A stretch of DNA of 53,032 nt from Betaproteobacteria bacterium RBG_16_66_20 (GCA_001770285.1 MEQQ01000066.1:15058-68089), one strand, 5' to 3'. Positions 36,601 through 53,032 are shown, counted from the stretch's first letter. Notes: a model not told the origin generated them from the sequence alone. Numbers and translations: made by a program.

Positions 36601-37233
36601 ATGTGTGGTCGCTATGCACTTCACGCCAATCCCGAGGTGGTGTCCCTTCTATTCGGGCTCTCGAAAGTTCCTGCCTATCAGCCGCGCTACAACATCGCGC
36701 CGGCATCGCAGGTCCTGATCATCCGGAAATATGAAGCCGCGATGGTCCGCTGGGGCCTCGTCCCGCGCTGGGCCAAAGATCCGTCCATCGGGGCGAAATT
36801 GAACAACGCCCGCGCCGAAAGCGTGGCGGAGAAGCCGTCGTTCCGCGATGCGTACCGCAAGCGCCGCTGCCTCATTCCGGCGAGCGGCTTTTACGAATGG
36901 AAGACCGAGGCCGGCCGCAAGCAGCCCTACTACGTGTTGCCGTCCGCGGGCGAGCTGTTCGCATTCGCCGGCCTGTGGGAGGAATGGAACGGGCCCGAGG
37001 GCGCGCTCCAGACCTGCGCCGTCATCACCACCGAGTCGAACGAAAAAATGCGCGCGGTGCACGACCGCATGCCGCTGATCGTCGCCCCGGAGGACTACCC
37101 CAGGTGGCTCGCAGGCGGCGCCGGGCTGCCGCGGCCCTGCCCGGCCGGCGCGATCGAAATCCGCAGGGTGAGCCGCGCGGTCAACAATGCGCGCAACGAC
37201 GCCGCCGGCCTGATCGAGCCCGACGGCAGCTGA
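36601..37233 (+). CDS. SOS response-associated peptidase (SRAP/YedK family, abasic-site processing protein)
   Basis: The invariant N-terminal MCGRY (Cys2), [23 protein letters not shown] and HDRMPLIV are present. Confidence 0.9.
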
Positions 37234-37234
37234 T

Positions 37235-37264
37235 TTGCGCCCGGCGGCAACTACTGGATATAAT
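37235..37264 (+). promoter_or_regulatory. Probable lexA promoter
   Basis: TTGCGC - 18 nt - TATAAT (37259..37264). The -10 element lies inside SOS box 1. Confidence 0.5.
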
Positions 37265-37287
37265 GCCAGCACTGAACAAGGGCACAG
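37254..37287. promoter_or_regulatory. Two tandem LexA (SOS) boxes
   Basis: CTGGATATAATGCCAG (37254..37269) and CTGAACAAGGGCACAG (37272..37287) both fit the beta/gamma-proteobacterial CTG-N10-CAG (CTGT-N8-ACAG) operator. They sit directly upstream of the lexA RBS GGAGG. Confidence 0.75.
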
Positions 37288-37303
37288 TGGCCCGGAGGCT
37301 GCG

Positions 37304-37933
37304 ATGAGCGAACCCCTGACCGAACGCCAGACCGAGATCCTGCGCCTGATCAAGGACCTCACCGAGGTGTCGGGTTTCCCGCCGACGCGCGCCGAGATCG
37401 CCGAGCGCATGGGCTTTCGCTCCGTGAACGCGGCCGAGCAGCACCTGCGCGCGCTGGAGCGCAAAGGCGCGCTGGAAATCTCCGCCGGATCCTCGCGCGG
37501 CATCAAGATCCGCGAGCGCGGCGGCCCGCGTCACGGGCGCCTGCTCGAGCTGCCGGTGATCGGCCGGGTCGCGGCCGGAAGCCCGATCCTCGCCGAAGCG
37601 CACGTGCAGGCACGCTATCAGATCGATCCCAACCTGTTCACGCCCCGCGCCGATTACCTGCTGCGCGTGCGCGGCCTGTCGATGCGCGACGCCGGCATCC
37701 TCGAAGGCGACCTGCTCGCAGTTCACCGCACGCAGGACGCGCAGAGCGGGCAGGTGGTGGTGGCGCGCATCGGCGACGAGGTGACCGTCAAGCGCCTGCG
37801 GCGCCGCGGACACGCGGTCCAGCTGCTGTCCGAGAACCCCGATTTCAAGCCGATCGAACTCGACCTGCGTCACGACGAAATGGCGATCGAGGGCGTCGCC
37901 GTCGGCGTGATCCGCAGCGGCAAAAGTCTGTAA
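37304..37933 (+). CDS. lexA: LexA repressor
   Basis: [12 protein letters not shown] ... FPPTRAEIA (winged HTH), the Ala-Gly cleavage site VAAGSP, the catalytic Ser (GLSM) and Lys (VKRL) are present. The start is set at ATG 37304. Confidence 0.95.
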
Positions 37934-40253: not shown

Positions 40254-40685
40254 TCAGCGCGCTCCGGGGTCGCTGCGGTCGGCGTTGCCTGCCGCCTGCT
40301 GCAGATGCACCGGCAGGTGCTCGCGCACGGCGGCGGCGAGCGTTTCACGCAGAATCGGCTTCACGATGTGCACGCTCGCGCCCAGCCTGCGGCAACGCTC
40401 GATCGACTCCGGATCGTCCAGCACCGAGACCACGAGCACGGGAGTGCTGCGGTTCGGCGAGCGTTCCCCGCGCAGCCACTCGAGCACGTCGAAGCCGCTT
40501 GCGTCGGGCATCAGCAGATCGAGCAGGATGATGTCGAAGCGCGTTTGCCGCATCTGGCGTTCAGCCTCGTCGGCGCCTCCGGCGAGCGTCACCTCGACCG
40601 GCAATTCCTGCGTCAGGATGCGCGCGATCAGCAGGCGCGTCGGCTCGTTGTCATCCACCACCAGGATCCGGATTTGCGCAGTCAT
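40254..40685 (-). CDS. Single-domain response regulator (receiver only)
   Basis: ILVVDDNEPTR, DIILLDLLMPDASG, VLVVSV and IVKP are present. The start is set at ATG 40685, 7 nt after the stop of the upstream FecR-domain gene. Confidence 0.8.
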   Translation of the reverse strand: MTAQIRILVVDDNEPTRLLIARILTQELPVEVTLAGGADEAERQMRQTRFDIILLDLLMPDASGFDVLEWLRGERSPNRSTPVLVVSVLDDPESIERCRRLGASVHIVKPILRETLAAAVREHLPVHLQQAAGNADRSDPGAR

Positions 40686-40692
40686 GGGATGC

Positions 40693-42195
40693 CTATCGGC
40701 CAAGCAGGGCGGCGCCGGATATGGTCTGGGCGGCCGCCTTCAAGCCGAACGATGTGATCATCCTCTGCGCCGCGCCGCCGACAAACAGGCCGTGCGCGGT
40801 GCCATTGGCGGGGACGGAGGGGGGAGGCAATCCGCCCCCCGCGCAACCGGCGCAGCTGCCGCTCAGCGAGATTCCGGAGGCGCCGCCGAACTGCGCGAAC
40901 GAACCACTGCCGCTCGCAGTCCAGTTTGCCGCGCCGATCGACGCATTCAGGTTGTAGCTGGTGATCTGCTGCGTGCCGAAATTGACGCCCGCGCTGAGCG
41001 AGTTGATCGTACCTTGCGCGCCGGCCTGGTTCGTCGGCGCAGGTCCGCCCGCGTAGTTGTACGTTGCAGTGACCAGCATCGCCGGCATCGCCGCGAGCTG
41101 CGCCGCGCTCGTCAGTTGCGTGCTGTTCATGAAATGCGTGCCTCCGTTCGTGGCGTTGCCTGCGACCGTGGCGAGGCCGCCAGTCCAGGTTCCCCAGTCC
41201 ACGCCCCAGGCGGCATCGCCGTTGCTGTTGGCGAGCGGCGCGCCATTGGTAACGATGGCGAGATTCACACCCGAGCGTGTCGCGCTGACGCCACTCACTG
41301 GATCGAATCCAACCACGCCCCCCATACCACCGCCACCCGGGACGCCACTGCCCGCGCCACTGCCGCTTCCCGCACTTCCTGCGCCGCCGCTCAGGCGGAT
41401 GCCGCTTGCGGTGACTACATCCTGCGTCACCTTCGGCTTAACGCTCTCCGCGTCCGCAGACCCGGCATCAGACGGCCGCGGCACCCCCGTACGCGACTGC
41501 GGTCCTACCGTCCTGTTGAAGAACCCGGGAATCCCGGGGAGCAGCGAAGGCATTTCGCCCGCTGAAGCCGCATAGCCAACCTGGTTGGGCGCGACCACCA
41601 CTTCACCCGCCTCGGTGCGGATGAACACCAGACCGACATTGACCTTGTTGTACACGCCCGATTGCGCGATGCCGCCGTTCGCCGGCTGGGGCGCGGAGAA
41701 GTAATACGATTCGTGATCGGTGCCGCGCACGCCCATCTGGGCGATCGGCGTCTCGATCAGGTAGTTGTCCTTGTTGCTCCGGCCAATGGCACCGGTAACA
41801 GCCCGAAAGCCGCCCTGCTCGAGCCGGTAGCGGACCCGCTCGGATCCGTCCTCGCGCCCGTCATAGCGGAACTCGACTACGGTAACGCGCGTTCCGGGCT
41901 GCACCACCACGACTGCCCCGTCGCCCATCTTGATCTGCGCAGTGCCCGATTTTTCGCTCAGCACCGTCTCGCCCACGGAAAGCGGCGTGCCCTTGCGCGC
42001 CGGCTTGCCTGCGCCGTTGGCGGACTGGACCTGCACCTCCCCCACAACGAACTGGAACACGCCGGCCACGGTGCCAAGCGCAACAGCCGGCCATCCCGCG
42101 ACGCAGGCGACCAGCAGCGCTCGAACTGTCGTTGCAATCAGATTCACCGCCCGGCACCTTTCCACCCTGACCAGCAAGCCGAAACGACTATACAT
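40693..42195 (-). CDS. Exported FecR-domain protein with Gly-rich linker and C-terminal TbpB/fHbp-like small beta-barrel domain
   Basis: The N-terminal hydrophobic segment is TTVRALLVACVAGWPAVALG. This could be a lipobox (LVAC) or an SPase I site (ALG/T). The FecR-type region is FVVGEVQVQSANG...PARKGTPLSVGETVLSEKSGTAQIKMGDGAVVVVQPGTRV. A linker GGAGSAGSGSGAGSGVPGGGGMGG follows. The C-terminus is ATYNYAGG...GTINSLSAGVNFGTQQITSYNLNAS...WTASGSGSF...GTAHGLFVGGAAQRMITSFGL. The start is uncertain (ATG 42195, GTG 42228 or GTG 42147). Confidence 0.7.
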   Translation of the reverse strand: MYSRFGLLVRVERCRAVNLIATTVRALLVACVAGWPAVALGTVAGVFQFVVGEVQVQSANGAGKPARKGTPLSVGETVLSEKSGTAQIKMGDGAVVVVQPGTRVTVVEFRYDGREDGSERVRYRLEQGGFRAVTGAIGRSNKDNYLIETPIAQMGVRGTDHESYYFSAPQPANGGIAQSGVYNKVNVGLVFIRTEAGEVVVAPNQVGYAASAGEMPSLLPGIPGFFNRTVGPQSRTGVPRPSDAGSADAESVKPKVTQDVVTASGIRLSGGAGSAGSGSGAGSGVPGGGGMGGVVGFDPVSGVSATRSGVNLAIVTNGAPLANSNGDAAWGVDWGTWTGGLATVAGNATNGGTHFMNSTQLTSAAQLAAMPAMLVTATYNYAGGPAPTNQAGAQGTINSLSAGVNFGTQQITSYNLNASIGAANWTASGSGSFAQFGGASGISLSGSCAGCAGGGLPPPSVPANGTAHGLFVGGAAQRMITSFGLKAAAQTISGAALLGR

Positions 42196-42265
42196 CCTTA
42201 CAGTAGACCTTAGCACCGCCCGCGGCACGGACCGAATGCGCGATTCTTGCCTTTTTTGACATTGA

Positions 42266-43648
42266 TTACCTGAAATCGTGCCGCAGGGTAATCCCGAAAT
42301 CGTGTCGGGTGTAGGCGTAGATCGGAATGTTAGACCCCTGGCGGGTCGAGCGCACCGCCAGCCGCAGGCGCAGATCAGCGATCAGCTGGTACTGCAGTGC
42401 GATTTCCAGGTCTTCGCGCCGGTCGTGGCGCGTGACCAGGAAGGCGGGATCCGCGCGCCGGTACGCCGCGTCCTGCAAGCCCGCGCTGGCCTGCAGCGAG
42501 AGCCGCCCGGCGAGCGCCTGCTCCACCCCGAGCAGCAGGCCCCATAGCCGCCGGTCGCCGCCGGGATTGCCGCCAACGTCATGTTCCCGTCCCGCCGAGA
42601 GGTTGCCGTAGAGCGCGGCCCCCGAATCCCAGCCGCGCCGCGCACCGACGCCGGCGGAGGCGAAATCGGCGTCGAAGACGCGTTGCTCGGCAGGGAGGTG
42701 CCGGAAACGCCCCGCCTGCGCAAACCCGGACCATCGGCTGCCATCCCCCGGGACTTCGCTGACCTCCAGCGCGAGCGCGCTCACGTCGCGGCTCGCCCGG
42801 CGATCGAGATAGGAGCGCGCCGACAGCAGCTGCGCGCGCGCGAAAAACCGGTCCCAGATCCGGGCCACCCCGATCCGTGCCGCGCCAGCGTCGATATCGA
42901 ACTGCGATTCGCGTGCGTTGCGCCGCTGGATCGCGTCGACGCCGCCAATCAGCGCATGGCGCTGGTCGATCTGGTGCGTGACGTCGATGCCCGCGCTCAA
43001 CCCGGCATAGCTGTCCGCCCGGCGCAGGTTGCGGCCCGCAAGATCGACTTCGGCTCCGAACAGCGGCACGAAGATGCGCGCCTGCGCGGCTGCGGCATTC
43101 ACATTCGAGTCGCGGCCGGCGCTTGCGGCCACGAAGCCGCTGATGAAGGTGCGCCGCTCGCCCGCGCCGCCGGCCTGCACCAGATAGGCCGCCAGCCGGT
43201 CGCGCACTGCCGCGGGCGGATCCAGAGCGAGCAGGCCCTCGAACACGATGCGCGCCTGCTCGCGGTTGCCGAGCGCGAGATACGCGCGACCCATGTCGAT
43301 CGAAGCGCCGGCATGCGTTGGATCCGACGCAAGCACCCGGGTAAACGCCAGCGTCGCGCGATCCGGCCTTCCGGATTCGAGCGCGGCGCGGCCAAGGGCG
43401 TAGTCGAAATCGATCTCGCCGATGTAATCATCTTCCTTCGCGGCGAGCGCACGGTAGGCCTCGTCCGCCTTGCCCGCCGCGCTCAGGATGCGTGCCTGCT
43501 CGAGCAGCCCCGCCCGCGCCTCGGACCCCGCGGCCTGCGCCTGCGCCGCGCCCGGCGCGGCCGCGAATGCCGCCACAAGCAACGCGCACGCGAAGGCGCG
43601 TCCGAGCGCCGCGCTACGCCGTTCCTCTAGAATGCACCGGCCCCCCAT
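42266..43648 (-). CDS. Outer-membrane protein: signal peptide + TPR domain + C-terminal beta-barrel, Slam/DUF560-like (probable)
   Basis: The signal peptide is AFACALLVAAFAAAPGAAQA. The TPR-like segment is DFDYALGRAALESGRPDRATLAFTRVLASDPTHAGASIDMGRAYLALGNREQARIVFEGLLALDPPAAVRDRLAAYL. About 290 aa of alternating-polarity strands follow (GRDSNVNAA ... LEIALQYQL ... LRLAVRSTRQGSNIPIYAYTRHDFGITLRHDF). Size and layout match surface-lipoprotein-assembly-modifier proteins as I remember them. Confidence 0.6.
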   Translation of the reverse strand: MGGRCILEERRSAALGRAFACALLVAAFAAAPGAAQAQAAGSEARAGLLEQARILSAAGKADEAYRALAAKEDDYIGEIDFDYALGRAALESGRPDRATLAFTRVLASDPTHAGASIDMGRAYLALGNREQARIVFEGLLALDPPAAVRDRLAAYLVQAGGAGERRTFISGFVAASAGRDSNVNAAAAQARIFVPLFGAEVDLAGRNLRRADSYAGLSAGIDVTHQIDQRHALIGGVDAIQRRNARESQFDIDAGAARIGVARIWDRFFARAQLLSARSYLDRRASRDVSALALEVSEVPGDGSRWSGFAQAGRFRHLPAEQRVFDADFASAGVGARRGWDSGAALYGNLSAGREHDVGGNPGGDRRLWGLLLGVEQALAGRLSLQASAGLQDAAYRRADPAFLVTRHDRREDLEIALQYQLIADLRLRLAVRSTRQGSNIPIYAYTRHDFGITLRHDFR

Positions 43649-43667
43649 AAGCGGGATTATCCACGCG

Positions 43668-46370
43668 ATGTCTGCCCCGATGCCGATTCGCCTCTTGACA
43701 GTGCTGGCGCTCGCACTCGGCTTCGCCTCCCTGTGCTCGCAGACGGCCCTCTATTCCAGGTTCCAGGGATGGCTTGAGGACGCGCAGCAGCGCCTGTTTG
43801 CCGAGCCGCTCGCGTTCGAGCATGCCGTCGTGTTCGACGTCGACGAGGAATCCATGCAGCGCCTCGAGGGACGGGTGGGCGCTTGGCCCTACCCGCGCGA
43901 TGTCTATGCGCGCACGGCGCGCTTTCTCGCCGCGCAGGGCGCGCGCGCGATCGCCTACGATATCCTGTTTTCCGAGGCGCGTCCGGGCGATGACGACTTC
44001 GCGCGAGTGCTTGACGCGCGCAGCGTCCTTGCCGCCGCGGCGCTGCCCTACACGCTGCGGCGCACCGCGGCGTACCAGGAGCAACTCGGCGGGCTCGCAC
44101 TGCCCCTCGATGGCGCGCCTGCACGGATCTGGCCCGACTTGACGCTGCCGCAGCCGCGCCTCACCTTGAACTCGGGTGCGCGGGCCGGTGCCATCAGCGC
44201 GCCCGCCGATGACGACGGCACGGTACGCAGGATTCACGTTCTGCACCAGGCCTATGGACGTGTTCTGCCGAGCCTGGCACTGGGCGCGCTGCTCGCGGCC
44301 GCGCCCGGCTCGCCGCTCGCATACGACGCCGGATCGCTGCGCCTCGGCGAGCGCGCCTGGCCTCTCGGCGCCGACGGCTCGGTCGTCCTGCGATTCCCGT
44401 CCAACGCCGCGGCGCTGCCCGTGGTCCCGTTTCACCAGCTGCACGAGGCCGCGGCTGGCGCGCCGGGAACGCTTCATATCGGCGACCTGGTGAACGGAAA
44501 GATCGTCTTCATCGGCAGCTCGAGCGCGATCCTGGGCGATTATGTGTTCACGCCCATCGGCCAGCTCTCCGGCTTGAAGTTCAGCGCCCTCGCGAGCGAA
44601 CTGCTGCTCGAAGGCCGCGTCCTGCGTCCTGCGCGCCTCGCCGTCGACGCCCTGCTGGCCGCGCTCGCGCTGCTGCTGCCGGCGCTCCTCGCGTATCGCG
44701 GCCCGCGGGCCCGGCCGCGCGAGTTCGCAATCGGTTTCGCGCTTGTGCTGCTCGCCGCGGCCGGGGCGGGCGGCGCGCTGTTCGCCGCCGGCCAGCAATC
44801 GCGCTGGCTGTTCGCGGCGCTCGCCGGCAGTTCGGCGCAGGCGATCGCACTGTGCGCCTGGCTGCTCGCTCTTTACCGCGAGCGCGAACGCCTTTACTAC
44901 GAGAAGCTCGCCGCCGAGCAGGCCAACCGGATGAAAACCGCGTTCCTGAACCGCATGACCCACGAGTTGCGCACGCCGCTCACCGCGATCACGGGTTTCA
45001 ACAAGATCAACCAGCTGAGCGACGATCTCGGACGCGCGCAGCGCGTGCACAACAGCGCGATCATTGCACGCAACTGCGAACACCTGCTGTCGCTGATCAA
45101 CGATCATCTGGACACCGCGCGTATCGCCGCGGGCCAGCTCCGCATAGAGCCGAGGGCGGTGGACCCGACTGCGCTGCTCGAGGACGTCGTTACGACGATG
45201 CGGGTCATGGCCGACGCGAAGGGCCTGCAGCTGTCGCTCCGTTTCGCACAGCCGCTGCCGGCCGCGATCCGCCTGGACCCGCTGCGCCTGCGGCAGATCC
45301 TGCTCAATCTGCTGGGCAACGCCGTCAAGTTCACCGCCCGCGGGTCGGTGGAGGTCGAGGCGTCCTGGGAACCGCAGCTTCTCCGGTTCTCCGTGCGCGA
45401 TACGGGCCCGGGCATACCCGCGGATTCGCTGGCGCGCGTGTTCGATCCCTTCGAGCGTGACGCCGGCGCCAAGGAGCCCGGAACCGGCTTGGGCCTGTCG
45501 GTCACGCGCGAACTGGTGCGCCTGATGCAGGGCACCATCTCGGTTACGTCGAGTCCCGGCGCAGGAACGCGGTTCTCGGTCAGCGTGTCCGCAACCGAAG
45601 AGAAGGCGGCCGTCGCGGCTGCCGTTGCGGCCGCCCCGGTGCCGCCGGCCCGGCCTCTCGTCGGCCGGGTCCTGGTCGCTGACGACAACCGGGACTTGCG
45701 CGAGCTCTTGCTGTTCCAGCTCGGCGAGCTGGGTCTGGAATGCGCCGCTGTTGCCGACGGTTTCGAAGCGGTCGAAGCTGCGACGCGGGGCGGCTTCGAC
45801 CTCGTCCTGCTCGACATGGAAATGCCGCGCATGAACGGCTGGGAAGCCGCGCACGTGCTGCGCGCGCGAGGCTTCGATCGCCCGGTCGTCGCCCTCACGG
45901 CGCACGAGACCGCGGGCGAGGCCGAGCGCGCGCTGAGCGAGGGCTGCGACCGGATCCTGCGCAAGCCCTGCAGCATCGAATCCTTGCATGCCGCGCTCGG
46001 GCCGCTGCTCGAGGGGGCCGCTCCGCTGGCGCCGCCGCAGGCCCGCCCCGCGACGTCGCGCGCCACCGGCACCGATCGCGCGGTGGTCCAGGTCGATCCC
46101 CGGATCGCCGACCTGGCGGAGAAATTCGTGGAAAGCGCGCGCCGCGACACCGCGCGGGCGCGACTGGCGCTCGACGCACGCGACCTGGACCAGGTCCGGC
46201 TGATCGGCCACACGCTGCGGGGCAGCGCAAGCTCCTACGGCTTCGACGCGGTCGCCCGGCTCGGAGGACTGCTCGAGCACGCGGCGCGCAACGAGGACGT
46301 CGATTCGGCCGACCGCGTCACCACGCGGCTCGCCGACTACCTCGCCCGCGTCGAGATCCGATTCGGCTGA
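43668..46370 (+). CDS. CHASE2-domain hybrid sensor histidine kinase (CHASE2 - 3 TM - HisKA - HATPase - REC - Hpt)
   Basis: There is an N-terminal TM and the CHASE2 signature region VVFDVDEESMQRLEGRVGAWPYPRDVYARTARFLAAQGARAIAYDILFSE. Three TM helices follow, then the H-box MTHELRTPLTAITGF, GTGLGLSVTRELV, a receiver (VLVADDNRDL ... DLVLLDMEMPRMNG ... VVALTAH) and an Hpt (IGHTLRGSASSYGFDAV). The start is set at ATG 43668. The 43614..46280 minus ORF is an antisense shadow. Confidence 0.85.
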   Translation: MSAPMPIRLLTVLALALGFASLCSQTALYSRFQGWLEDAQQRLFAEPLAFEHAVVFDVDEESMQRLEGRVGAWPYPRDVYARTARFLAAQGARAIAYDILFSEARPGDDDFARVLDARSVLAAAALPYTLRRTAAYQEQLGGLALPLDGAPARIWPDLTLPQPRLTLNSGARAGAISAPADDDGTVRRIHVLHQAYGRVLPSLALGALLAAAPGSPLAYDAGSLRLGERAWPLGADGSVVLRFPSNAAALPVVPFHQLHEAAAGAPGTLHIGDLVNGKIVFIGSSSAILGDYVFTPIGQLSGLKFSALASELLLEGRVLRPARLAVDALLAALALLLPALLAYRGPRARPREFAIGFALVLLAAAGAGGALFAAGQQSRWLFAALAGSSAQAIALCAWLLALYRERERLYYEKLAAEQANRMKTAFLNRMTHELRTPLTAITGFNKINQLSDDLGRAQRVHNSAIIARNCEHLLSLINDHLDTARIAAGQLRIEPRAVDPTALLEDVVTTMRVMADAKGLQLSLRFAQPLPAAIRLDPLRLRQILLNLLGNAVKFTARGSVEVEASWEPQLLRFSVRDTGPGIPADSLARVFDPFERDAGAKEPGTGLGLSVTRELVRLMQGTISVTSSPGAGTRFSVSVSATEEKAAVAAAVAAAPVPPARPLVGRVLVADDNRDLRELLLFQLGELGLECAAVADGFEAVEAATRGGFDLVLLDMEMPRMNGWEAAHVLRARGFDRPVVALTAHETAGEAERALSEGCDRILRKPCSIESLHAALGPLLEGAAPLAPPQARPATSRATGTDRAVVQVDPRIADLAEKFVESARRDTARARLALDARDLDQVRLIGHTLRGSASSYGFDAVARLGGLLEHAARNEDVDSADRVTTRLADYLARVEIRFG

Positions 46371-46378
46371 GGCCGGCC

Positions 46379-47644
46379 CTAGAGCTTGACCGTGGTCTCG
46401 GCGCGGTAGGCGCCGGTTCCCTGGTAGTACTTGCGCGACAGGAAGCCGATCACCTCGTCGGCGTTCCTGAAGCGCGCATCGCGGTCTTTCTCCACCAGCT
46501 TGTCCATCAGGCGCTGGTACGGGGCGAGGTACTCCGGCAGGTCCGGCGGCTGCGTGTTCAGGTGGTGCAGCGCGACCTCCACCGCGGTCTCGCCGTCGAA
46601 CAGGTGCGTTCCGGTGAGCATCTGGAACAGCAGCACGCCGGCGCTGTAGATGTCGGTGCGCAGGTCGAGCGCTGCGCCCCGCACCTGCTCCGGGCTCATG
46701 TAGCGCGGCGTGCCGAGGATCTCGCCGTGCCCGGTGCGGTCGATCGAATCGACGTGCTTGGCGATGCCGAAATCCAGGATCGCGAGGCTGCCGTCGGAGC
46801 GGAACATCAGGTTCTGCGGCTTGAGGTCCCGGTGCAGGATGCCCTGCTCGTGGATGTCGCCCAGGGCGAACATCAGTTCGCGGAAGATCTGCAGCGATTC
46901 ATCGGGCGGCAGCGGCCTGCCGCCGAGCCGCTTGTTCAGGTCGCCGCCATCGAAGAACTCCATCACCAGGTAGGCATGCTCGCCGGAGACGCCGTGGCTG
47001 TGGATGCGCGCCACGTGCCGGCTGCGGATCCGTTCGACCAGGTTGTACTCCTCGATGAAGCGCCCGAGGGCGGTCTTGTCCGAGGTCACCTCGCTCCGCA
47101 GGATCTTCACCACCAGCGGCTCGTCGTCGCCCTCGCGCGACGCGAGGTAGACGCGCGACATGCCGCCCTCGCCGATCAGGTGCAGCACCTTGATTCCCGG
47201 GATCCGGATGCTCGCGCCGAGCTGGTGGCCGGCCTGGCGCGCCGCGTCCTCCGGCGAAGCGGCTTTTTCGGCCACGCCGCGGGTCAGCTCGCGCACCGAG
47301 GTCGCCAGTTTCTCGCGCGTCAGTTCCTGCTTGCGCTGGTAATCGTCCGCACCCGCCTTCATGGCGCGCACCGCGATCACCTCGTTGCCCGCCCCGGTGA
47401 GGAACAGCACCGGCGGGCAATCGGCGCGCTTCTTGAACTGCTGCAGCCACTCCAGGCCGTCGCCGCGCCCCAGCATGTAATCGAGGATCACCACGTCGTA
47501 GGCGCCGAGCGGGAACGAGGCGTCGGGCATGTCGCGCTCGAGCGGGTCGAACTGCTCGACCTGCAGCTCCGGCCATTCCTGCTTCAGGTGATGCGCGAGG
47601 ATGTTCCGCAGATCCTCGTCGTCGTCGATGATCAGGACTTTCAC
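46379..47644 (-). CDS. Response-regulator receiver fused to a Hanks-type Ser/Thr protein kinase
   Basis: The REC domain shows VLIIDDDEDL, VVILDYMLGRGDG, VLFLTGAG and ADDYQRK. The kinase shows the G-loop IGEGGMSRVY, VVKIL, HRDLKPQNLMF, DFGIAK and GTPRYMSPEQ. Confidence 0.85.
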   Translation of the reverse strand: MKVLIIDDDEDLRNILAHHLKQEWPELQVEQFDPLERDMPDASFPLGAYDVVILDYMLGRGDGLEWLQQFKKRADCPPVLFLTGAGNEVIAVRAMKAGADDYQRKQELTREKLATSVRELTRGVAEKAASPEDAARQAGHQLGASIRIPGIKVLHLIGEGGMSRVYLASREGDDEPLVVKILRSEVTSDKTALGRFIEEYNLVERIRSRHVARIHSHGVSGEHAYLVMEFFDGGDLNKRLGGRPLPPDESLQIFRELMFALGDIHEQGILHRDLKPQNLMFRSDGSLAILDFGIAKHVDSIDRTGHGEILGTPRYMSPEQVRGAALDLRTDIYSAGVLLFQMLTGTHLFDGETAVEVALHHLNTQPPDLPEYLAPYQRLMDKLVEKDRDARFRNADEVIGFLSRKYYQGTGAYRAETTVKL

Positions 47645-47661
47645 GCCCCGCCCCCTTCCCC

Positions 47662-48798
47662 TTACGCCGCCACGCGCAATGCCACCACTTCGAGCGGCTC
47701 GGCTTTCCCTTTCAAGGCCACCGCGCGCCGCTCGACCGCCGTCGCGCCCCCGAGCATCGCGTGCAGCGACAACGCGGCGCGCGGCCCGATCAGGATCTCG
47801 TTCGCCGCCGCGGTCTGCATCAGGCGCGCCGCGACGTTCACCGGATCGCCGATGATGGTGTAGCTCATGAAACTGGGCGCGCCGACGTTGCCGACCACCA
47901 CTTCGCCGGACTCGATCCCGATCCCGATACCGGTGGCAAGGCCGTGCTCGGCCCTCCAGCGCGCCGCCACCGGCGCGAAGCGCTCGATCATCGCGCGCGC
48001 GGTCCTGACTGCGCGCGCAGTGGCATCGGGCTGCTGCACCGGCACGTTGAATCCGACCAGCAGGCTGTCGCCCGCCATGCTGAACACGGTCCCCTCGTTG
48101 TCATGCACTGCCGCAGTCAATTCGGTGAAAAACTCATTCAACATCGGCACGATATTCGACACCGGCACGGCCTCCGAGAGGTGCGTGAAACCGCGCAGGT
48201 CGGCGAACAGCGCCACCACCGCGGTGCGCTCGGAGAGGTTGCGGAACACGGCCTCGCCGTCCGGGCTTTCGCGCAGCACGCGTTCGGCGAGGCGCGGCGA
48301 CAGGTAGCGCGAAAAGGCCTTGCGGATCGCCTCCTTGGCCTGCACCTCGGCGGCGAGCCGCCGGCCTTCCAGTTCCTTGCGGGTTTCGTGCAGGCGGCGC
48401 AGCGTCTTGACGCGCGCCAGCAGTTCCTCGCGCTGCACCGGCTTGGAGAGGAAATCGTCGGCGCCGGCCTCGATGCCGCGCACGCGGCTCTCGTGGTCCT
48501 CGAGCGCGGTGATCAGCACCACCGGCAGGAGCGCCGTCGAGTCCTCGCTCTTCAACCGGCGGCAGATGTCGAAGCCGCTCGGGCCGGGCATCTGCACATC
48601 GAGCAGCACCAGGTCGGGCGGCGCGGCCGCGATCATCTCCAGCGCGACATGGCCGTCGGCGGCGATGTCCGCGTGCATGCCCTGCTGCGCGAGCAGCAGG
48701 GCGAGGAACCCCGCCATGTCCGGATCGTCGTCGACCACCAGGACGCGGAACGCGGCCTGTGCGGCGTGCGCCACGCGCCCGGAGGCGAGCTCACTCAT
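47662..48798 (-). CDS. Response-regulator receiver fused to a class III nucleotidyl (adenylate/guanylate) cyclase domain
   Basis: The REC domain shows VLVVDDDPDM, LVLLDVQMPGPSG, VVLITAL and DDFLSKP. The cyclase shows VVALFADLRGFT, MAGDSLLVGF and IIGDPVNVAARL. The start at ATG 48798 overlaps the Hpt gene stop (ATGAGTGA). Confidence 0.85.
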   Translation of the reverse strand: MSELASGRVAHAAQAAFRVLVVDDDPDMAGFLALLLAQQGMHADIAADGHVALEMIAAAPPDLVLLDVQMPGPSGFDICRRLKSEDSTALLPVVLITALEDHESRVRGIEAGADDFLSKPVQREELLARVKTLRRLHETRKELEGRRLAAEVQAKEAIRKAFSRYLSPRLAERVLRESPDGEAVFRNLSERTAVVALFADLRGFTHLSEAVPVSNIVPMLNEFFTELTAAVHDNEGTVFSMAGDSLLVGFNVPVQQPDATARAVRTARAMIERFAPVAARWRAEHGLATGIGIGIESGEVVVGNVGAPSFMSYTIIGDPVNVAARLMQTAAANEILIGPRAALSLHAMLGGATAVERRAVALKGKAEPLEVVALRVAA

Positions 48799-49096
48799 AG
48801 ACGATCTGCACCCGCGCGAGGTAGTCGGCGTATTCGGCGATGCGCGCCTCGAGCCCGGCGCGGTCGCCGGCCTTCGCGCCGTCCTCGATCTGCTTGCCGA
48901 GCGTCGACACCAGCTCGAAACCGTAGGAGTTGCCCACACCCTTCATGCGGTGGCCGAGCTGGCGCAGCTGCTCCATGTTGCCCGCGGCAAGCGCCGCGCG
49001 CAGCGCTTCGACTTCCTTGGAGCGGTTTTTCATGAACGTCGGGATCAGGTCCTCGAGGTCCTTGGCAACGGTGACGGCAATCGGTTGGGCGGTCAT
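48791..49096 (-). CDS. Stand-alone histidine phosphotransfer (Hpt) protein
   Basis: The 101-aa helical protein has the Hpt signature LRQLGHRMKGVGNSYGFELV. Confidence 0.8.
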   Translation of the reverse strand: MTAQPIAVTVAKDLEDLIPTFMKNRSKEVEALRAALAAGNMEQLRQLGHRMKGVGNSYGFELVSTLGKQIEDGAKAGDRAGLEARIAEYADYLARVQIVYE

Positions 49097-49149: not shown

Positions 49150-52107
49150 TCAGTGAAAGTCCCGCGAGCGCAGCCTGAGGCCGCCGGGCGAGCCTCCCTG
49201 CAGGCGTACGAGGAGCCGGCTGTGGTCCTCCAGCCGCCGCGCGATCAGGTGCACCACCCGGCCCTCCCGCTCGATCACCCCCTCCACCCCCAGCAGGCGC
49301 GCGCCGAGCAATTCCCGGCGCTGGCGCTCGAGCAGGCTGCGCCAGACCACCACGTTGACGCAGCCGCTCTCGTCCTCGAGCGTCACGAACACCACCCCGC
49401 TCGCGGTATCCGGCCGCTGCCGGCAGGTGACCAGCCCGGCAGCGCGCGCGAGGCTGCCATGCGGAAGCAAACAGAGGTTTTCTGCTTTTACTATCTTTAG
49501 TTTTCCCAGGTGATTTCTCAAAAGAGCGAGCGGATGTCTTCCCAGCGTGAAACCAAGGCTCCGGTAGTCGGCCACGATCTCCTCGCCTTCGGCAGGGGGC
49601 TCGAATTCAGGTTGGTTTTTCGTTCTTGTATCTGAAGACAAAAAGGCAGTTCCTTTCTCAACCCCGGACGCGGCCCAATGCGCGCTCCTGCGATGCCCCG
49701 CCAGGGACTGCAGCGCGCCCGCCGCAGCCAGGCAGTTCAGGTCCCTGCGGTTCAGGCCGGCGCGCTGCGCGAGATCCGCGACCGAAGCGCAGGGCCTGCT
49801 CGCCACGATCCGCTCCCCCGCAGCGGCGGCAAGGCCACCCACCATGCGCAAACCCAGGCGTACTGCGCCGTCCTCGAGCGTGCAGTCCCACTGGCTGAGC
49901 GCCGCGTCCGCCGGCCTGACTTCGACGCCGTGCCGCCGCGCATCCTGGACCAGTTGCGAAGGGCTGTAGAACCCCATCGGCTGGCTGTTGAGCAGCGCAG
50001 CGAGGAACGCCGCCGGATGGTGGCGCTTGAGCCAGGCCGAGGCGTAGACCAGCAGCGCGAAGCTCGCCGAGTGCGACTCGGGAAAGCCGTAGTCGCCGAA
50101 CCCCAGGATCTGGCGGTAGACCGCGTCGGCGAATGCCGGCGCATAGCCGTTCCTGCGCATCCCGCCTTTCAGTTTCTCCTCGAAAGGCTCGAGGCCGCCC
50201 TTCTTCTTCCATGCCGCCATCGAACGGCGCAGCTGGTCCGCCTCGCCGGGCGAGAAACCGGCGGCGACCATGGCGAGCTGCATCACCTGCTCCTGGAAGA
50301 TCGGTATGCCGAGCGTGCGCGCGAGCACGCTCTTCACCGCCCCGCTCGGATAGGCCACCGGCTCCAGGCCCTGCCGGCGGCGCAGGTACGGATGCACCAT
50401 GCCGCCCTGGATCGGCCCCGGGCGCACGATCGCCACTTCGATCACCAGGTCGTAGAAATTCTCCGGCTTCAGGCGCGGCAGCATCGACATCTGCGCGCGC
50501 GATTCGATCTGGAACACCCCGACGGTGTCGGCTCGCTGGATCATCTCGTAGACGGCGGGGTCTTCGGCGGGAATGTCTTGCATTTTTTTTCCTATGAAAT
50601 TCAACCCCCGGCGAAGGGCGGACAACATTCCCAGCGCCAGCACGTCCACCTTCAGCAGGCCGAGCGATTCCAGGTCGTCCTTGTCCCACTGGATCACCGT
50701 GCGATCCGCCATCGCCGCGTTCTCGACCGGCACCAGCTCGGCGAGCGGCCCGCGCGAGATGACGAAGCCGCCCACGTGCTGTGAGAGGTGCCGGGGAAAG
50801 CCAATCAGTGTTTCAACCAGATTCAAAAATGGACTCGATGAACCAAGTACCCTGTTGAGATCGCGCATGGCGCTTTTGCGCCGGTAGCAGATCACGCTCG
50901 CGGCGAGCGCCGCGCGCTCGCGGCCGTATTTCCGGTAGAGGTACTGGATCACCTCCTCGCGCCGCTCGTGCTCGAAATCGACGTCGATGTCGGGCGGTTC
51001 GTTCCGCTCCCTGGAAATGAAGCGCTCGAACAGCATGTTCATCCGGGCGGGATCGACTTCCGTGATGCCGAGGCAGTAGCAGACCGCCGAGTTCGCCGCC
51101 GAACCCCGGCCCTGGCACAGGATGCCCCGCGAGCGCGCGAACTGCACCACGTCGTGCACCGTGAGGAAGAAAGCCTCGTAGCCGAGCTCGGCGATGAGCG
51201 CGAGCTCGCGCCCGACCAGCTCGCGCACAGGGGCGGGCGCGCCGCCCGGGAAGCGCCATTGCAGGCCCCCGGCGGCGAGCTTGCCGAGGTGCGAGGCCGG
51301 CGTCTCGCCCGCCGGCACCAGTTCCTTCGGGTACTCGTAGCGCAGCGCATCCAGCGAGAAGCGGCAGCGGTCCGCTATTTTCACTGTTTCTTTAATTAAA
51401 TCAAAAGGATACAGTTGCGCTATGCGTGCACGCAGGCGCAAATGTCTTTCGCCATTTGAAAAAAGATTTTTCCCGCAACACGCGACCGGAACCCCCAGGC
51501 GGATCGCGGTAAGCGCGTCCTGCAGGCGCCGGCGCGAGCGCAGGTGCATGTGCACGTCGCCCGCGGCCACCAGCGGCAGACCGGAATGCCTTGAAATTGC
51601 ATCCAATCGCCTTAATTTTCCCGAATCGTTCGGGCCGCAATGCAATTCCGCCGCGAGCCAGCTGCCGCCCGGGAACCGCTCCCGGATCCAGAGCGCATCG
51701 TCAAGGGATGGTCTTTCTCCCGGCACCCAGAGGAGCAGCAGACCGTCCTCCGAGTGCACTTCCAGATCCCCCCGGGAAAGCGAGTACGCCCCTTTTCGCG
51801 CGCGCCTTCGCGCCGTGGTGATCAGCGCTGCGAGCGCGCCGTAGGCCCTGCGGTCCGGCGCGAGCAGGACCAGCTTCAGGCCGTCCTGCAGCAGGAACTC
51901 GGAACCGACGACCAGCTTGAAACCTTTTTCCTTCGCCGCCACGTGGGCGCGCACGATTCCCGCGAGCGAGCATTCGTCGGTGAGCGCGAGCGCCGCGTAG
52001 CCGAGCGCCGCGGCGCGCGCCGCGAGTTCCTCCGGCTGCGAGGCGCCGCGCAGGAAGCTGAAGTTCGACAGGCAGTGCAGCTCCGCGTATTCAGGCAAAC
52101 AGGCCAT
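49150..52107 (-). CDS. dnaE2: Error-prone DNA polymerase DnaE2 (ImuC)
   Basis: The PHP N-terminus is [25 protein letters not shown]. The Pol III alpha core shows [16 protein letters not shown] and [14 protein letters not shown], and an OB-fold C-terminus follows. The start is set at ATG 52107, overlapping the imuB stop by 17 nt. Confidence 0.93.
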
Positions 52108-53032
52108 GCAGGAACCAGTCCCCTCCCGGCTGCGCGCCCCGCTCCCGGTAGATCCACGCCAGCGAGGCTTCACCGGTGCGCGCGATGAAGTAGTCGCGCC
52201 GCGCCTCGGCGCCGTCCCACCAGCCCGACTCGATGCGCTCCGGCCCCGCGAGCAGCGTGAACTCGCCCTCCCGGATGCGGCGCGGCGCCTCGAGCAGCCA
52301 CAGGGGGCGCGGACTGGGGATTTCGTTTTGTTTTTCGATTGAATTCATGTTTTTTATTCCAAGTCCAATACGACAAAAGGCAAATTCCGGGCGGTGATCT
52401 TCATGAATTCCAAGGCCGTGCACCGCCTCGTTCCCGAGCCGCGCCTGCAGGCGCTCGATCAACCGCAGCCATTCCTCTGCGCTGCCGCGCCGATCATCGA
52501 AAAGGTTCTGGTTTTGTTCCGGAATATTTTCCAGGTCCCCGGCTTCGATCCCGATCGCCTCGATCGGCGACCTGAGCGCCAGCGCACCCAGGCGCTCGCG
52601 CAGCAGGCGCGCGAAATGCTCCGCGCCGCGGCCGGGCGCGGCGAGCCCCACTTTCACTTCGGTGGCGGGCAGGCCGTCGTGCAGCAGTTCGAGGACGAAG
52701 GCCCGCACCCCGGCCTGGCGCGCGGCGAGGAAGCCTTCCATCTGCGCGAGCAGCCGCCGCGCGGCGAACAGCGCGTTTTCGGCCTGCATCACCGGCGCGG
52801 GCAATTCGAGCCGCGCCGAAAAGCGCGCCGGCGGCACGAAGAATTCACGCGCCTCGGGCGCCTGGCCGCAGGCCTGGCCGAGCTCCTCGAGCAGGCCCTG
52901 CCCGAAACGCAGCGCCACGCCCTCGCGCGGCAGGCGCATCAGCCCGCCGATGGTCCTTATCCCGAGACTGGAGAGCAATTCGAGCGCCGCCGGGGCGAGG
53001 CCGGTCACGGCGACCGGCAGCGCCTCCAGCCT
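52091..53032 (-). CDS. imuB: ImuB (Y-family polymerase-like SOS mutagenesis protein), C-terminal part; gene continues past the window end
   Basis: The frame is open to the window edge (…[44 protein letters not shown]…). It lies immediately upstream of, and overlaps, dnaE2, as in imuA-imuB-dnaE2 cassettes. Confidence 0.85.

Follow-up and report, generated by a model that had tools for sequence, protein, structure and literature searches.

A divergent Slam-type outer-membrane protein and its candidate FecR-domain cargo with a TbpB-like barrel, encoded beside a CHASE2 hybrid kinase in Betaproteobacteria bacterium RBG_16_66_20

Analysis of a stretch of 53,032 nucleotides (nt) from Betaproteobacteria bacterium RBG_16_66_20 (GCA_001770285.1 MEQQ01000066.1:15058-68089), here called the window, points to a divergent outer-membrane protein (OMP) that belongs to the Slam family and a partner protein combining a FecR domain with a TbpB-like C-terminal barrel, which in this lineage occur together with a CHASE2 phosphorelay; we hold this explanation as a whole with moderate confidence. 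The OMP gene (42266..43648, minus strand) encodes 460 amino acids (aa) and is followed by the gene of the partner, in the following the FecR protein (40693..42147, minus). Hundreds of homologs were found for each of the two proteins, and their adjacency in nearly all loci makes the pair more than a chance arrangement. OMP and FecR protein are likely to act as a functional OMP-partner pair. As judged from sequence and structure models, the partner appears to be Sec-exported, non-lipidated and built like cargo of the type 11 secretion system (T11SS), with the FecR fold in the place of the effector. This suggests a previously undescribed class of cargo which links T11SS export to signalling, the new elements being the cargo architecture and the barrel sequence family within a Slam/T11SS-type pair.

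The architecture published for Slam, an N-terminal TPR domain followed by a 14-stranded barrel (PMC5449769), has likewise been described for NilB (PMC8406197). The signal peptide, TPR-like repeats and beta-strand region that the original prediction had read from the DNA sequence were reproduced in size and layout by the AlphaFold2 model of the OMP (119-sequence alignment, mean predicted local distance difference test value, pLDDT, of 86.3), in which helices at aa 34-159 precede exactly 14 beta strands within aa 167-459, most of them with pLDDT >90. The hydrophobic N-terminal signal, read by eye, comprises approximately aa 1-39 (43532..43648, minus) with cleavage near its terminal AQA/QA, and was modelled as a helix at aa 13-29 with low pLDDT. 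The periplasmic TPR domain (aa 34-159; 43172..43549, minus) was matched by the Pfam models TPR_19, TPR_2 and TPR_16 over aa 83-155. For the barrel (42272..43150, minus), delimited by AlphaFold2 and further supported by a barrel-profile search and Pfam scan, the best template modelling (TM) scores in the Foldseek comparison with the PDB, 0.62-0.69, were those to the 14-stranded OmpG. The sole low-confidence loop of the barrel, aa 186-206 between strands 1 and 2, holds the most conserved motif of the family and might serve as a plug or contact the substrate. The most conserved stretch, DSNVN...FVPxFG...L...N...D, spans aa ~179-212 (window ~43010-43115, minus).

Direct scans of the OMP against Pfam and NCBIfam returned just TPR models plus sub-threshold BBP2_2 and EpsL tails, and the NCBI record of one relative is labelled 'porin family protein'. 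Taken alone, the direct scans give the wrong impression that the OMP is not a Slam protein, and a transitive search was needed. The OMP shares 36% identity over 418 aa (E 2e-69) with its counterpart in a distant locus (L020), which passes PF04575 (SlipAM/DUF560) with 51 bits versus a cut-off of 22 and covers model positions 11-288 of 288. Furthermore, a barrel-only profile of the OMP searched against 1.84 billion representative proteins retrieved 2009 clusters at E<=1e-3 and 239 when the threshold was set to E<=1e-30; most of these proteins have ~440 aa and a C-terminal barrel. Among 93 remote relatives with barrel-profile E-values of 1e-35 to 1e-46, 78 matched PF04575 (best E 4.4e-18) and 13 weakly matched the Slam-specific TPR model PF24575 (TPR_Slam). 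The OMPs adjoining FecR-barrel genes in distant loci were in accordance with this: all 11 of those tested reached the PF04575 gathering score with 22.0-60.4 bits, and 10 spanned the whole model. Considering the PF04575-positive relatives, the presence of a TPR domain and the predicted strand number of 14, we regard the OMP as almost certainly a divergent member of the Slam/DUF560 (type 11 secretion) superfamily. Membership of a different barrel family, which had been named as a possible outcome when the DUF560 assignment was first put forward, was not borne out, as homology to PF04575 members favours Slam/DUF560. A polysaccharide exporter of the PgaA/BcsC type was considered as well and rejected on the grounds of 14 modelled strands instead of 16, a length of only ~450 aa and the absence of exopolysaccharide genes nearby.

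The C-terminal part of the FecR protein is very likely a TbpB-like handle plus barrel. In the AlphaFold2 model of this protein (116 homologs, mean pLDDT 84.6, numbered from M12 of the open reading frame, ORF), a 'handle' or 'pedestal' sheet of five strands at residues 292-358 (41122..41322, minus), which carries the conserved GVNWGxW motif, stands before an eight-stranded barrel at residues 376-499 (40699..41070, minus), most of which has pLDDT >90. A search of the full model against the PDB with Foldseek gave TbpB 4o4x as top match (E 1.8e-5, probability 1.0), followed by many further TbpB entries, the TbpB C-lobe 5kkx, LbpB, fHbp, hemophilin 7re4, the NHBA C-domain and the TbpB-like lipoprotein 3hoe. 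At the sequence level, the last 185 aa match no Pfam model, and PDB sequence searches, by single sequence as well as by profile, yielded nothing beyond designed TPR proteins and 5ix9, with no Slam, TbpB, fHbp or hemophilin. Because sequence methods find no link to TbpBBD or fHbp, the resemblance to TbpB is one of fold, and the domain represents an undescribed sequence family. Of what had been predicted for this protein, the FecR domain, the linker and the C-terminal barrel of ~130 aa were confirmed by Pfam and AlphaFold2, the handle before the barrel having been missed; a disordered or non-barrel tail, which would have spoken against the idea, was not encountered, the eight-stranded barrel being modelled with confidence and TbpB being its top structural match. 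The TbpB/fHbp motifs recognised by eye stood at the level of fold, whereas by sequence (Pfam, profiles against the PDB) they were statistically undetectable.

Within the family, the hallmarks of the tail are kept down to ~27% identity and comprise GVNWGxW, ATYxY, the strand G-x-I-N-S-L-S-V-x-V-N-F, a Trp strand, a CxxC loop, G-x-A-x-G-x-F-V-G, ITSFGL and a terminal Arg or Lys. The CxxC motif, present in 109 of 116 homologs, is located in the loop before barrel strand 6 (window ~40840-40860, minus), and a disulfide or a metal site at this position would fit an extracytoplasmic location. With an N-terminal domain, then a handle and finally the barrel, the protein agrees with the effector/pedestal/barrel scheme put forward for T11SS cargo (PMC12282271).

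The N-terminal part of the FecR protein is in line with export by the Sec pathway. The reading frame is open up to 42228 (ORF 40693-42228), and the likely start, considering also the N-termini of homologs, is the GTG at 42147, which is preceded 9 nt upstream by the Shine-Dalgarno sequence GGAAAGG. From this start the signal peptide reads MNLIATTVRALLVACVAGWPAVALG (42073..42147, minus), with cleavage before TVAGVFQF, and in the alignment homologs share T-A-G-V-F-Q-F as the start of the mature protein, behind an AxA-type site. The Cys of the LLVAC motif, for which both a lipobox and a position inside a signal-peptidase I signal peptide had been envisaged, is not conserved: any Cys in the presequence occurs in 31 of 87 homologs and a lipobox-like motif in just 14 of 87. 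Lipoprotein status was rejected for this reason, and the signal-peptidase I alternative is the one that holds, i.e., the signal is predicted to be of this type and the family is not lipidated as far as its presequences tell. The low frequency of lipobox-like motifs places the FecR protein with the soluble class of T11SS cargo, for which hemophilin/HrpC provides a non-lipidated precedent (PMC8406197).

The mature protein begins with a FecR-fold beta-sandwich (AlphaFold2 residues 43-209; 41569..42069, minus), in which Pfam FecR (PF04773) spans aa 89-172 and which Foldseek matched to the FecR-type anti-sigma domains 4m0h and PupR 6ovk. Its first ~70 mature residues (window ~41860-42070, minus) additionally resemble the periplasmic retention module of an RTX adhesin, 5ix9, with a phmmer E-value of 2e-5 and, in Foldseek, a TM-score of 0.78, a root-mean-square deviation of 1.0 and 36% identity over 63 columns; the NCBIfam model retention_LapA gave 23.6 bits, under its cut-off of 50. 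No paper linking FecR domains with retention modules was found in the literature consulted. The sandwich is connected to the handle by a disordered linker rich in Ala, Gly, Ser and Pro (residues 232-287; 41335..41502, minus; pLDDT <50), the length and composition of which vary among homologs. A LysM domain was not found in the FecR protein by Pfam. A canonical anti-sigma FecR was rejected, as the protein has neither a transmembrane segment nor an anti-sigma domain and no ECF sigma factor or TonB-dependent receptor accompanies it, sigma-70_r2/r4 and TonB-dependent receptors not having been found among the neighbours scanned.

The gene neighbourhood was compared in 35 loci from a scan with one genome per species, all of them in uncultured metagenome-assembled genomes (MAGs) of Burkholderiales, Betaproteobacteria or Gallionellales, and two loci, L001 and L037, were added from contigs of homologs. 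The OMP gene followed by the partner gene, adjacent and co-directional, was observed in practically all of the 36 related loci, wherever the sequence was long enough, and down to ~31% identity. In the closer clade (L001-L019) a CHASE2 hybrid kinase gene lies divergently upstream in 19 of 19 loci, and it is also present, truncated, in L037 (79% identity); a stand-alone receiver (REC) gene was found 3' of the partner wherever the contig reaches far enough. The FecR-protein module has the COG4254-like character of a CHASE2 partner in the window, in L001-L019 and in L037, and not in L020-L035. Thus, the OMP-partner pair is the conserved core, and the CHASE2 wiring is a feature of the lineage of the window. 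The synteny with the CHASE2 hybrid kinase supports the link to two-component sensing that had been proposed from the window alone, and we lean slightly towards a functional coupling of the pair to this kinase.

In the distant clade (L020-L035), the neighbours of the pair include ornithine decarboxylase, thyA and folA. The position of the pair beside folA and thyA at L020:8575-9931 and L030:7612-8975 recalls that T11SS OMP genes have been described to co-occur with genes of one-carbon metabolism and nucleotide synthesis (PMC12282271). A Gallionellales MAG (L024, 2748-11002) carries two tandem pairs of OMP and FecR protein, and the partners in L024 and L031 (L031:993-5626) reach 1324 and 1062 aa; in them a long region without annotation separates the N-terminal FecR domain from the same C-terminal barrel. 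At L017:33-6854 an ORF of 2273 aa combines repeats of an adhesin-like kind (DUF11, SdrD_B, CarboxypepD_reg) with a TPR domain and a Slam-like barrel and adjoins both a FecR-barrel gene and a gene for a 2056-aa DUF7933/DUF11 protein; a similar protein of 2187 aa (P0263) is present in the representative protein library.

In the window, the stand-alone REC gene (40254..40703, minus; Pfam Response_reg), which closer relatives likewise have 3' of the pair, closes the putative operon and overlaps or abuts the FecR stop codon. In divergent orientation to the OMP gene, positions 43668..46370 of the plus strand encode a CHASE2-HisKA-HATPase-REC-Hpt hybrid histidine kinase, as judged by its Pfam domains and start codon and by its counterparts in L001-L019 and, truncated, in L037. 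The start codons of OMP and kinase are separated by a gap of only 19 nt (43649-43667), which implies that both promoters lie inside the neighbouring coding sequence or that one of the start codons is mis-assigned. Genes for an Hpt protein, a REC-adenylate/guanylate cyclase and a REC-Ser/Thr kinase (46379..49096, minus; Pfam, ORFs) might form a downstream relay, although their linkage is not conserved: they were rejected as part of the conserved module, not being found beside the kinase in other loci. This trio is tightly packed and converges on the CHASE2 kinase, with a stop-to-stop gap of 8 nt to the REC-Ser/Thr kinase gene. The GC content is ~67-70% across the region and a compositional break was not seen. 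SOS-related genes lie on either side of the cluster, namely SRAP/YedK-like and LexA genes (36601-37933) and the gene of the error-prone polymerase DnaE2 (49150-52173); the SRAP-LexA arrangement also occurs in the 79%-identical relative L037.

Taking these observations together, we propose that OMP and partner would both enter the periplasm via Sec, and that the OMP would recognise the C-terminal handle and barrel of the partner and transport this portion into or across the outer membrane. In this lineage, the pair would cooperate with the CHASE2 hybrid kinase and the REC protein of its operon and provide the outer-membrane arm of a sensory pathway that spans the envelope; the FecR domain may be the element contacting the periplasmic CHASE2 domain and the hybrid kinase might hand phosphate to REC proteins. 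Recognition, translocation, topology, FecR-CHASE2 contact and phosphorelay output are all steps that we infer. CHASE2 sensors repeatedly have FecR-domain proteins as partners, as known from Burkholderia (PMC5192318), a cluster of CHASE2 cyclase, FecR and TPR protein has been noted in Campylobacterota (PMC9239204), and the CHASE2 cyclases of S. meliloti depend on the outer-membrane barrel protein NsrA for their signal (PMC13001267, PMC7529298). The topology we prefer, albeit tentatively, has barrel and handle exposed at the surface, the linker running through or along the 14-stranded pore and the FecR domain in the periplasm; it is derived from the occurrence of FecR-CHASE2 pairs in systems lacking the OMP, the long disordered linker and the N-terminus resembling the 5ix9 retention module. 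A trans-outer-membrane sensor of this kind, with the handle-barrel as surface head for ligand binding, a linker of ~55 residues in the pore and a retained FecR domain contacting CHASE2, is one possible form of the mechanism and is put forward with similar, marginally greater reserve.

Several results weigh against the interpretation as a Slam-type pair with a signalling cargo. The OMP itself gave no PF04575 match, either as whole protein or as barrel alone, even at E<=10, so that its assignment to DUF560/Slam stands through PF04575-positive homologs, TPR domain and strand number and fails on its own score; its sole barrel match in Pfam was BBP2_2 at the C-terminus with 22.7 bits, below the cut-off of 23.7. 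Foldseek was undiscriminating for the OMP, returning generic large barrels with BcsC first by E-value, and no solved Slam structure was among the PDB matches listed. Moreover, PF04575 also picks up a few PgaA/HmsH polysaccharide exporters (PMC8406197), and a match to this model alone is therefore not proof of protein secretion. For the partner, TM-scores to single TbpB-like lobes were modest (0.34-0.46, with the whole, uncropped model as query), ten diverse C-terminal domains had no Pfam match at E<=10, including TbpBBD PF01298 and lipoprotein C/fHbp, and hidden Markov model (HMM) profiles of the tail found no TbpB-like match among PDB sequences. The C-terminal domain is charge-poor, with 7 charged residues of 210, which makes its sequence pattern alone compatible with an integral-membrane barrel. 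With respect to signalling, no CHASE2 gene lies within 7 kb of the pair in the distant clade (OMP ~31-37% identity), and the persistence of the pair there indicates that the link to signalling may be lineage-specific. Finally, all characterised T11SS cargo is wholly translocated (PMC8406197, PMC12282271), and a retained periplasmic N-terminal domain would thus be unprecedented.

This last precedent would be respected if the locus encoded an ordinary T11SS pair by which the whole FecR-barrel protein is released or displayed at the surface in the manner of hemophilin or TbpB, with the FecR fold as an extracellular binding or adhesin module and the kinase regulating the operon or sensing something else. 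Such a function might be conceivable given that Leptospira FecR-fold proteins can be surface adhesins, the FecR protein showing weak NCBIfam matches to LipL45 and Lsa33, and the distant clade that keeps the pair without a nearby CHASE2 gene is in line with it as well. We nevertheless consider full export unlikely in view of the CHASE2 kinase gene divergently adjacent in all of the 19 closer relatives, together with a stand-alone REC in the operon, and of the recurrence of the FecR-CHASE2 pairing in OMP-less systems, where the FecR protein is necessarily periplasmic (PMC5192318). Furthermore, Pfam detected in the response regulators of the cluster no DNA-binding output domain able to regulate the operon. 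The same OMP-less FecR-CHASE2 pairs (PMC5192318) can be read in the opposite sense, namely that nothing is translocated and that the FecR-barrel protein is a periplasmic co-sensor of CHASE2 docking on the TPR domain of the OMP, which then would be a receptor in a FecA/FecR-like arrangement. FecR-type domains do bind the periplasmic domains of outer-membrane transducers, PupR-PupB 6ovk being among the structural matches, and TPR domains mediate protein-protein contacts. However, this would leave the conserved TbpB-like handle-barrel, a hallmark of Slam/T11SS substrates (PMC5449769, PMC12282271), without a role, the OMP family is homologous to PF04575 secretins, and a TonB box, plug or STN domain was not found in the OMP by Pfam scan, which makes a purely periplasmic partner rather improbable.

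Contrary to both of these possibilities, the eight-stranded barrel might itself be an integral outer-membrane anchor of the OmpA/OmpX/PagP type that leaves the FecR domain in the periplasm, the TPR-barrel protein then being an assembly helper or an unrelated porin. Besides the scarcity of charge, the alternation of small or hydrophobic with polar uncharged residues in the strands would agree with such an anchor, and InterPro groups TbpB-type with PagP-like barrels (PMC5449769). Nonetheless, the top 50 Foldseek matches of the FecR-protein model include the soluble barrels of TbpB, LbpB, fHbp, hemophilin and NHBA, with OmpA, OmpX and PagP absent from them, a handle of the TbpB type stands before the barrel, the strands are short (8-12 residues), and 116 of 116 homologs end in Arg or Lys and not in an aromatic residue; an integral anchor is accordingly regarded as very improbable. 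We retain the reading of a Slam-type pair whose handle-barrel would be the translocated part of a CHASE2-associated partner.

With regard to the literature, experimentally verified T11SS cargo all stems from the animal-associated cluster 1, while other DUF560 clusters have been described as associated with soil or water and uncharacterised, and cargo has been defined by adjacency and the C-terminal barrel (PMC8406197, PMC12282271). The T11SS papers mention FecR in no other role than that of the canonical FecI/FecR regulator next to TonB-dependent receptors (bioRxiv 2023.03.15.532718; supplement of PMC12282271). No paper combining T11SS/DUF560 with CHASE2 or with FecR-domain cargo was found in the literature consulted. 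The pair described here is a concrete and widely conserved candidate cargo system for environmental Slam relatives, and since the sequence models used for finding cargo do not detect its barrel family, present censuses probably miss it. Through it, an OMP of the secretion type would also be tied to a signalling module and not to nutrient capture. CHASE2, a common sensor domain, is not known to have a defined input, and FecR-domain proteins recur as its so far unexplained partners. The OMP, the FecR-barrel protein and the CHASE2 kinase constitute a defined set of three proteins which makes the question of CHASE2 input directly testable. If true, the trans-outer-membrane sensor would be a Slam-assembled functional analogue of RcsF-OMP, type 11 systems would have their first substrate that is translocated only in part, and CHASE2 sensors their first defined route of input.

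Compared with known systems, the pair shares with Neisseria Slam1/Slam2 and their cargo TbpB, LbpB, fHbp and HpuA (T11SS cluster 1) the OMP with TPR domain and 14-stranded DUF560-type barrel and the adjacent substrate gene whose product ends in a handle and an eight-stranded barrel. Unlike in Neisseria, the divergence of the OMP keeps it from scoring with PF04575, the partner appears not to be a lipoprotein, no TbpBBD or lipoprotein-C model fits its barrel, the FecR fold replaces the lobe binding nutrients or complement, and the hosts are uncultured free-living Burkholderiales and not mucosal pathogens. The hemophilin-type pairs (HrpB/HrpC of Xenorhabdus, HsmA/Hpl-like) are similar in that a non-lipidated Sec cargo with handle and barrel adjoins a DUF560 OMP; hemophilins, however, bind haem and sit in TonB/haem-uptake neighbourhoods, whereas here a CHASE2 kinase and REC are found without a TonB-dependent receptor, and the partner additionally contains a folded domain at its N-terminus and a long linker of disordered sequence. 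An N-terminal folded domain, a flexible segment and a remainder destined for an outer-membrane pore are also features of LapA/MpIBP-type RTX adhesins (5ix9; bioRxiv 10.1101/198937), from which the present system differs by having no RTX repeats, type 1 secretion system genes or LapG/LapD. The FecR/PupR anti-sigma factors have in common with the partner the FecR-fold domain, PF04773 and the structural matches 4m0h and 6ovk, but in the partner the FecR fold directly follows a cleavable signal peptide, with no cytoplasmic anti-sigma domain or transmembrane helix and no ECF sigma factor or TonB-dependent transducer encoded nearby.

In terms of signal flow, RcsF, a lipoprotein assembled by BAM, is threaded through OMPs and signals to the Rcs phosphorelay. 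The Rcs system thus likewise connects a surface element to an inner-membrane sensor and includes a hybrid kinase with an Hpt step, but it has no DUF560 OMP or FecR domain. The Burkholderia 'BiofilmReg' operon of response regulator, LysM-FecR protein and CHASE2 histidine kinase shares with the locus a secreted FecR-domain protein beside a CHASE2 sensor and a response regulator and differs by its LysM domain and by lacking an OMP and a barrel tail (PMC5192318). The same combination, including a TPR protein, is found in the Campylobacterota cluster of CHASE2 cyclase, FecR and TPR protein, compared here by its description (PMC9239204); neither of the two studies recognised a Slam-type OMP or a TbpB-like barrel (PMC5192318, PMC9239204). 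Finally, NsrA of S. meliloti is a single large barrel protein whose pathway involves no DUF560 OMP or FecR domain, and its action on CHASE2 cyclases (PMC13001267, PMC7529298) shares with the mechanism proposed here that an outer-membrane element feeds a periplasm-facing sensor of the inner membrane.

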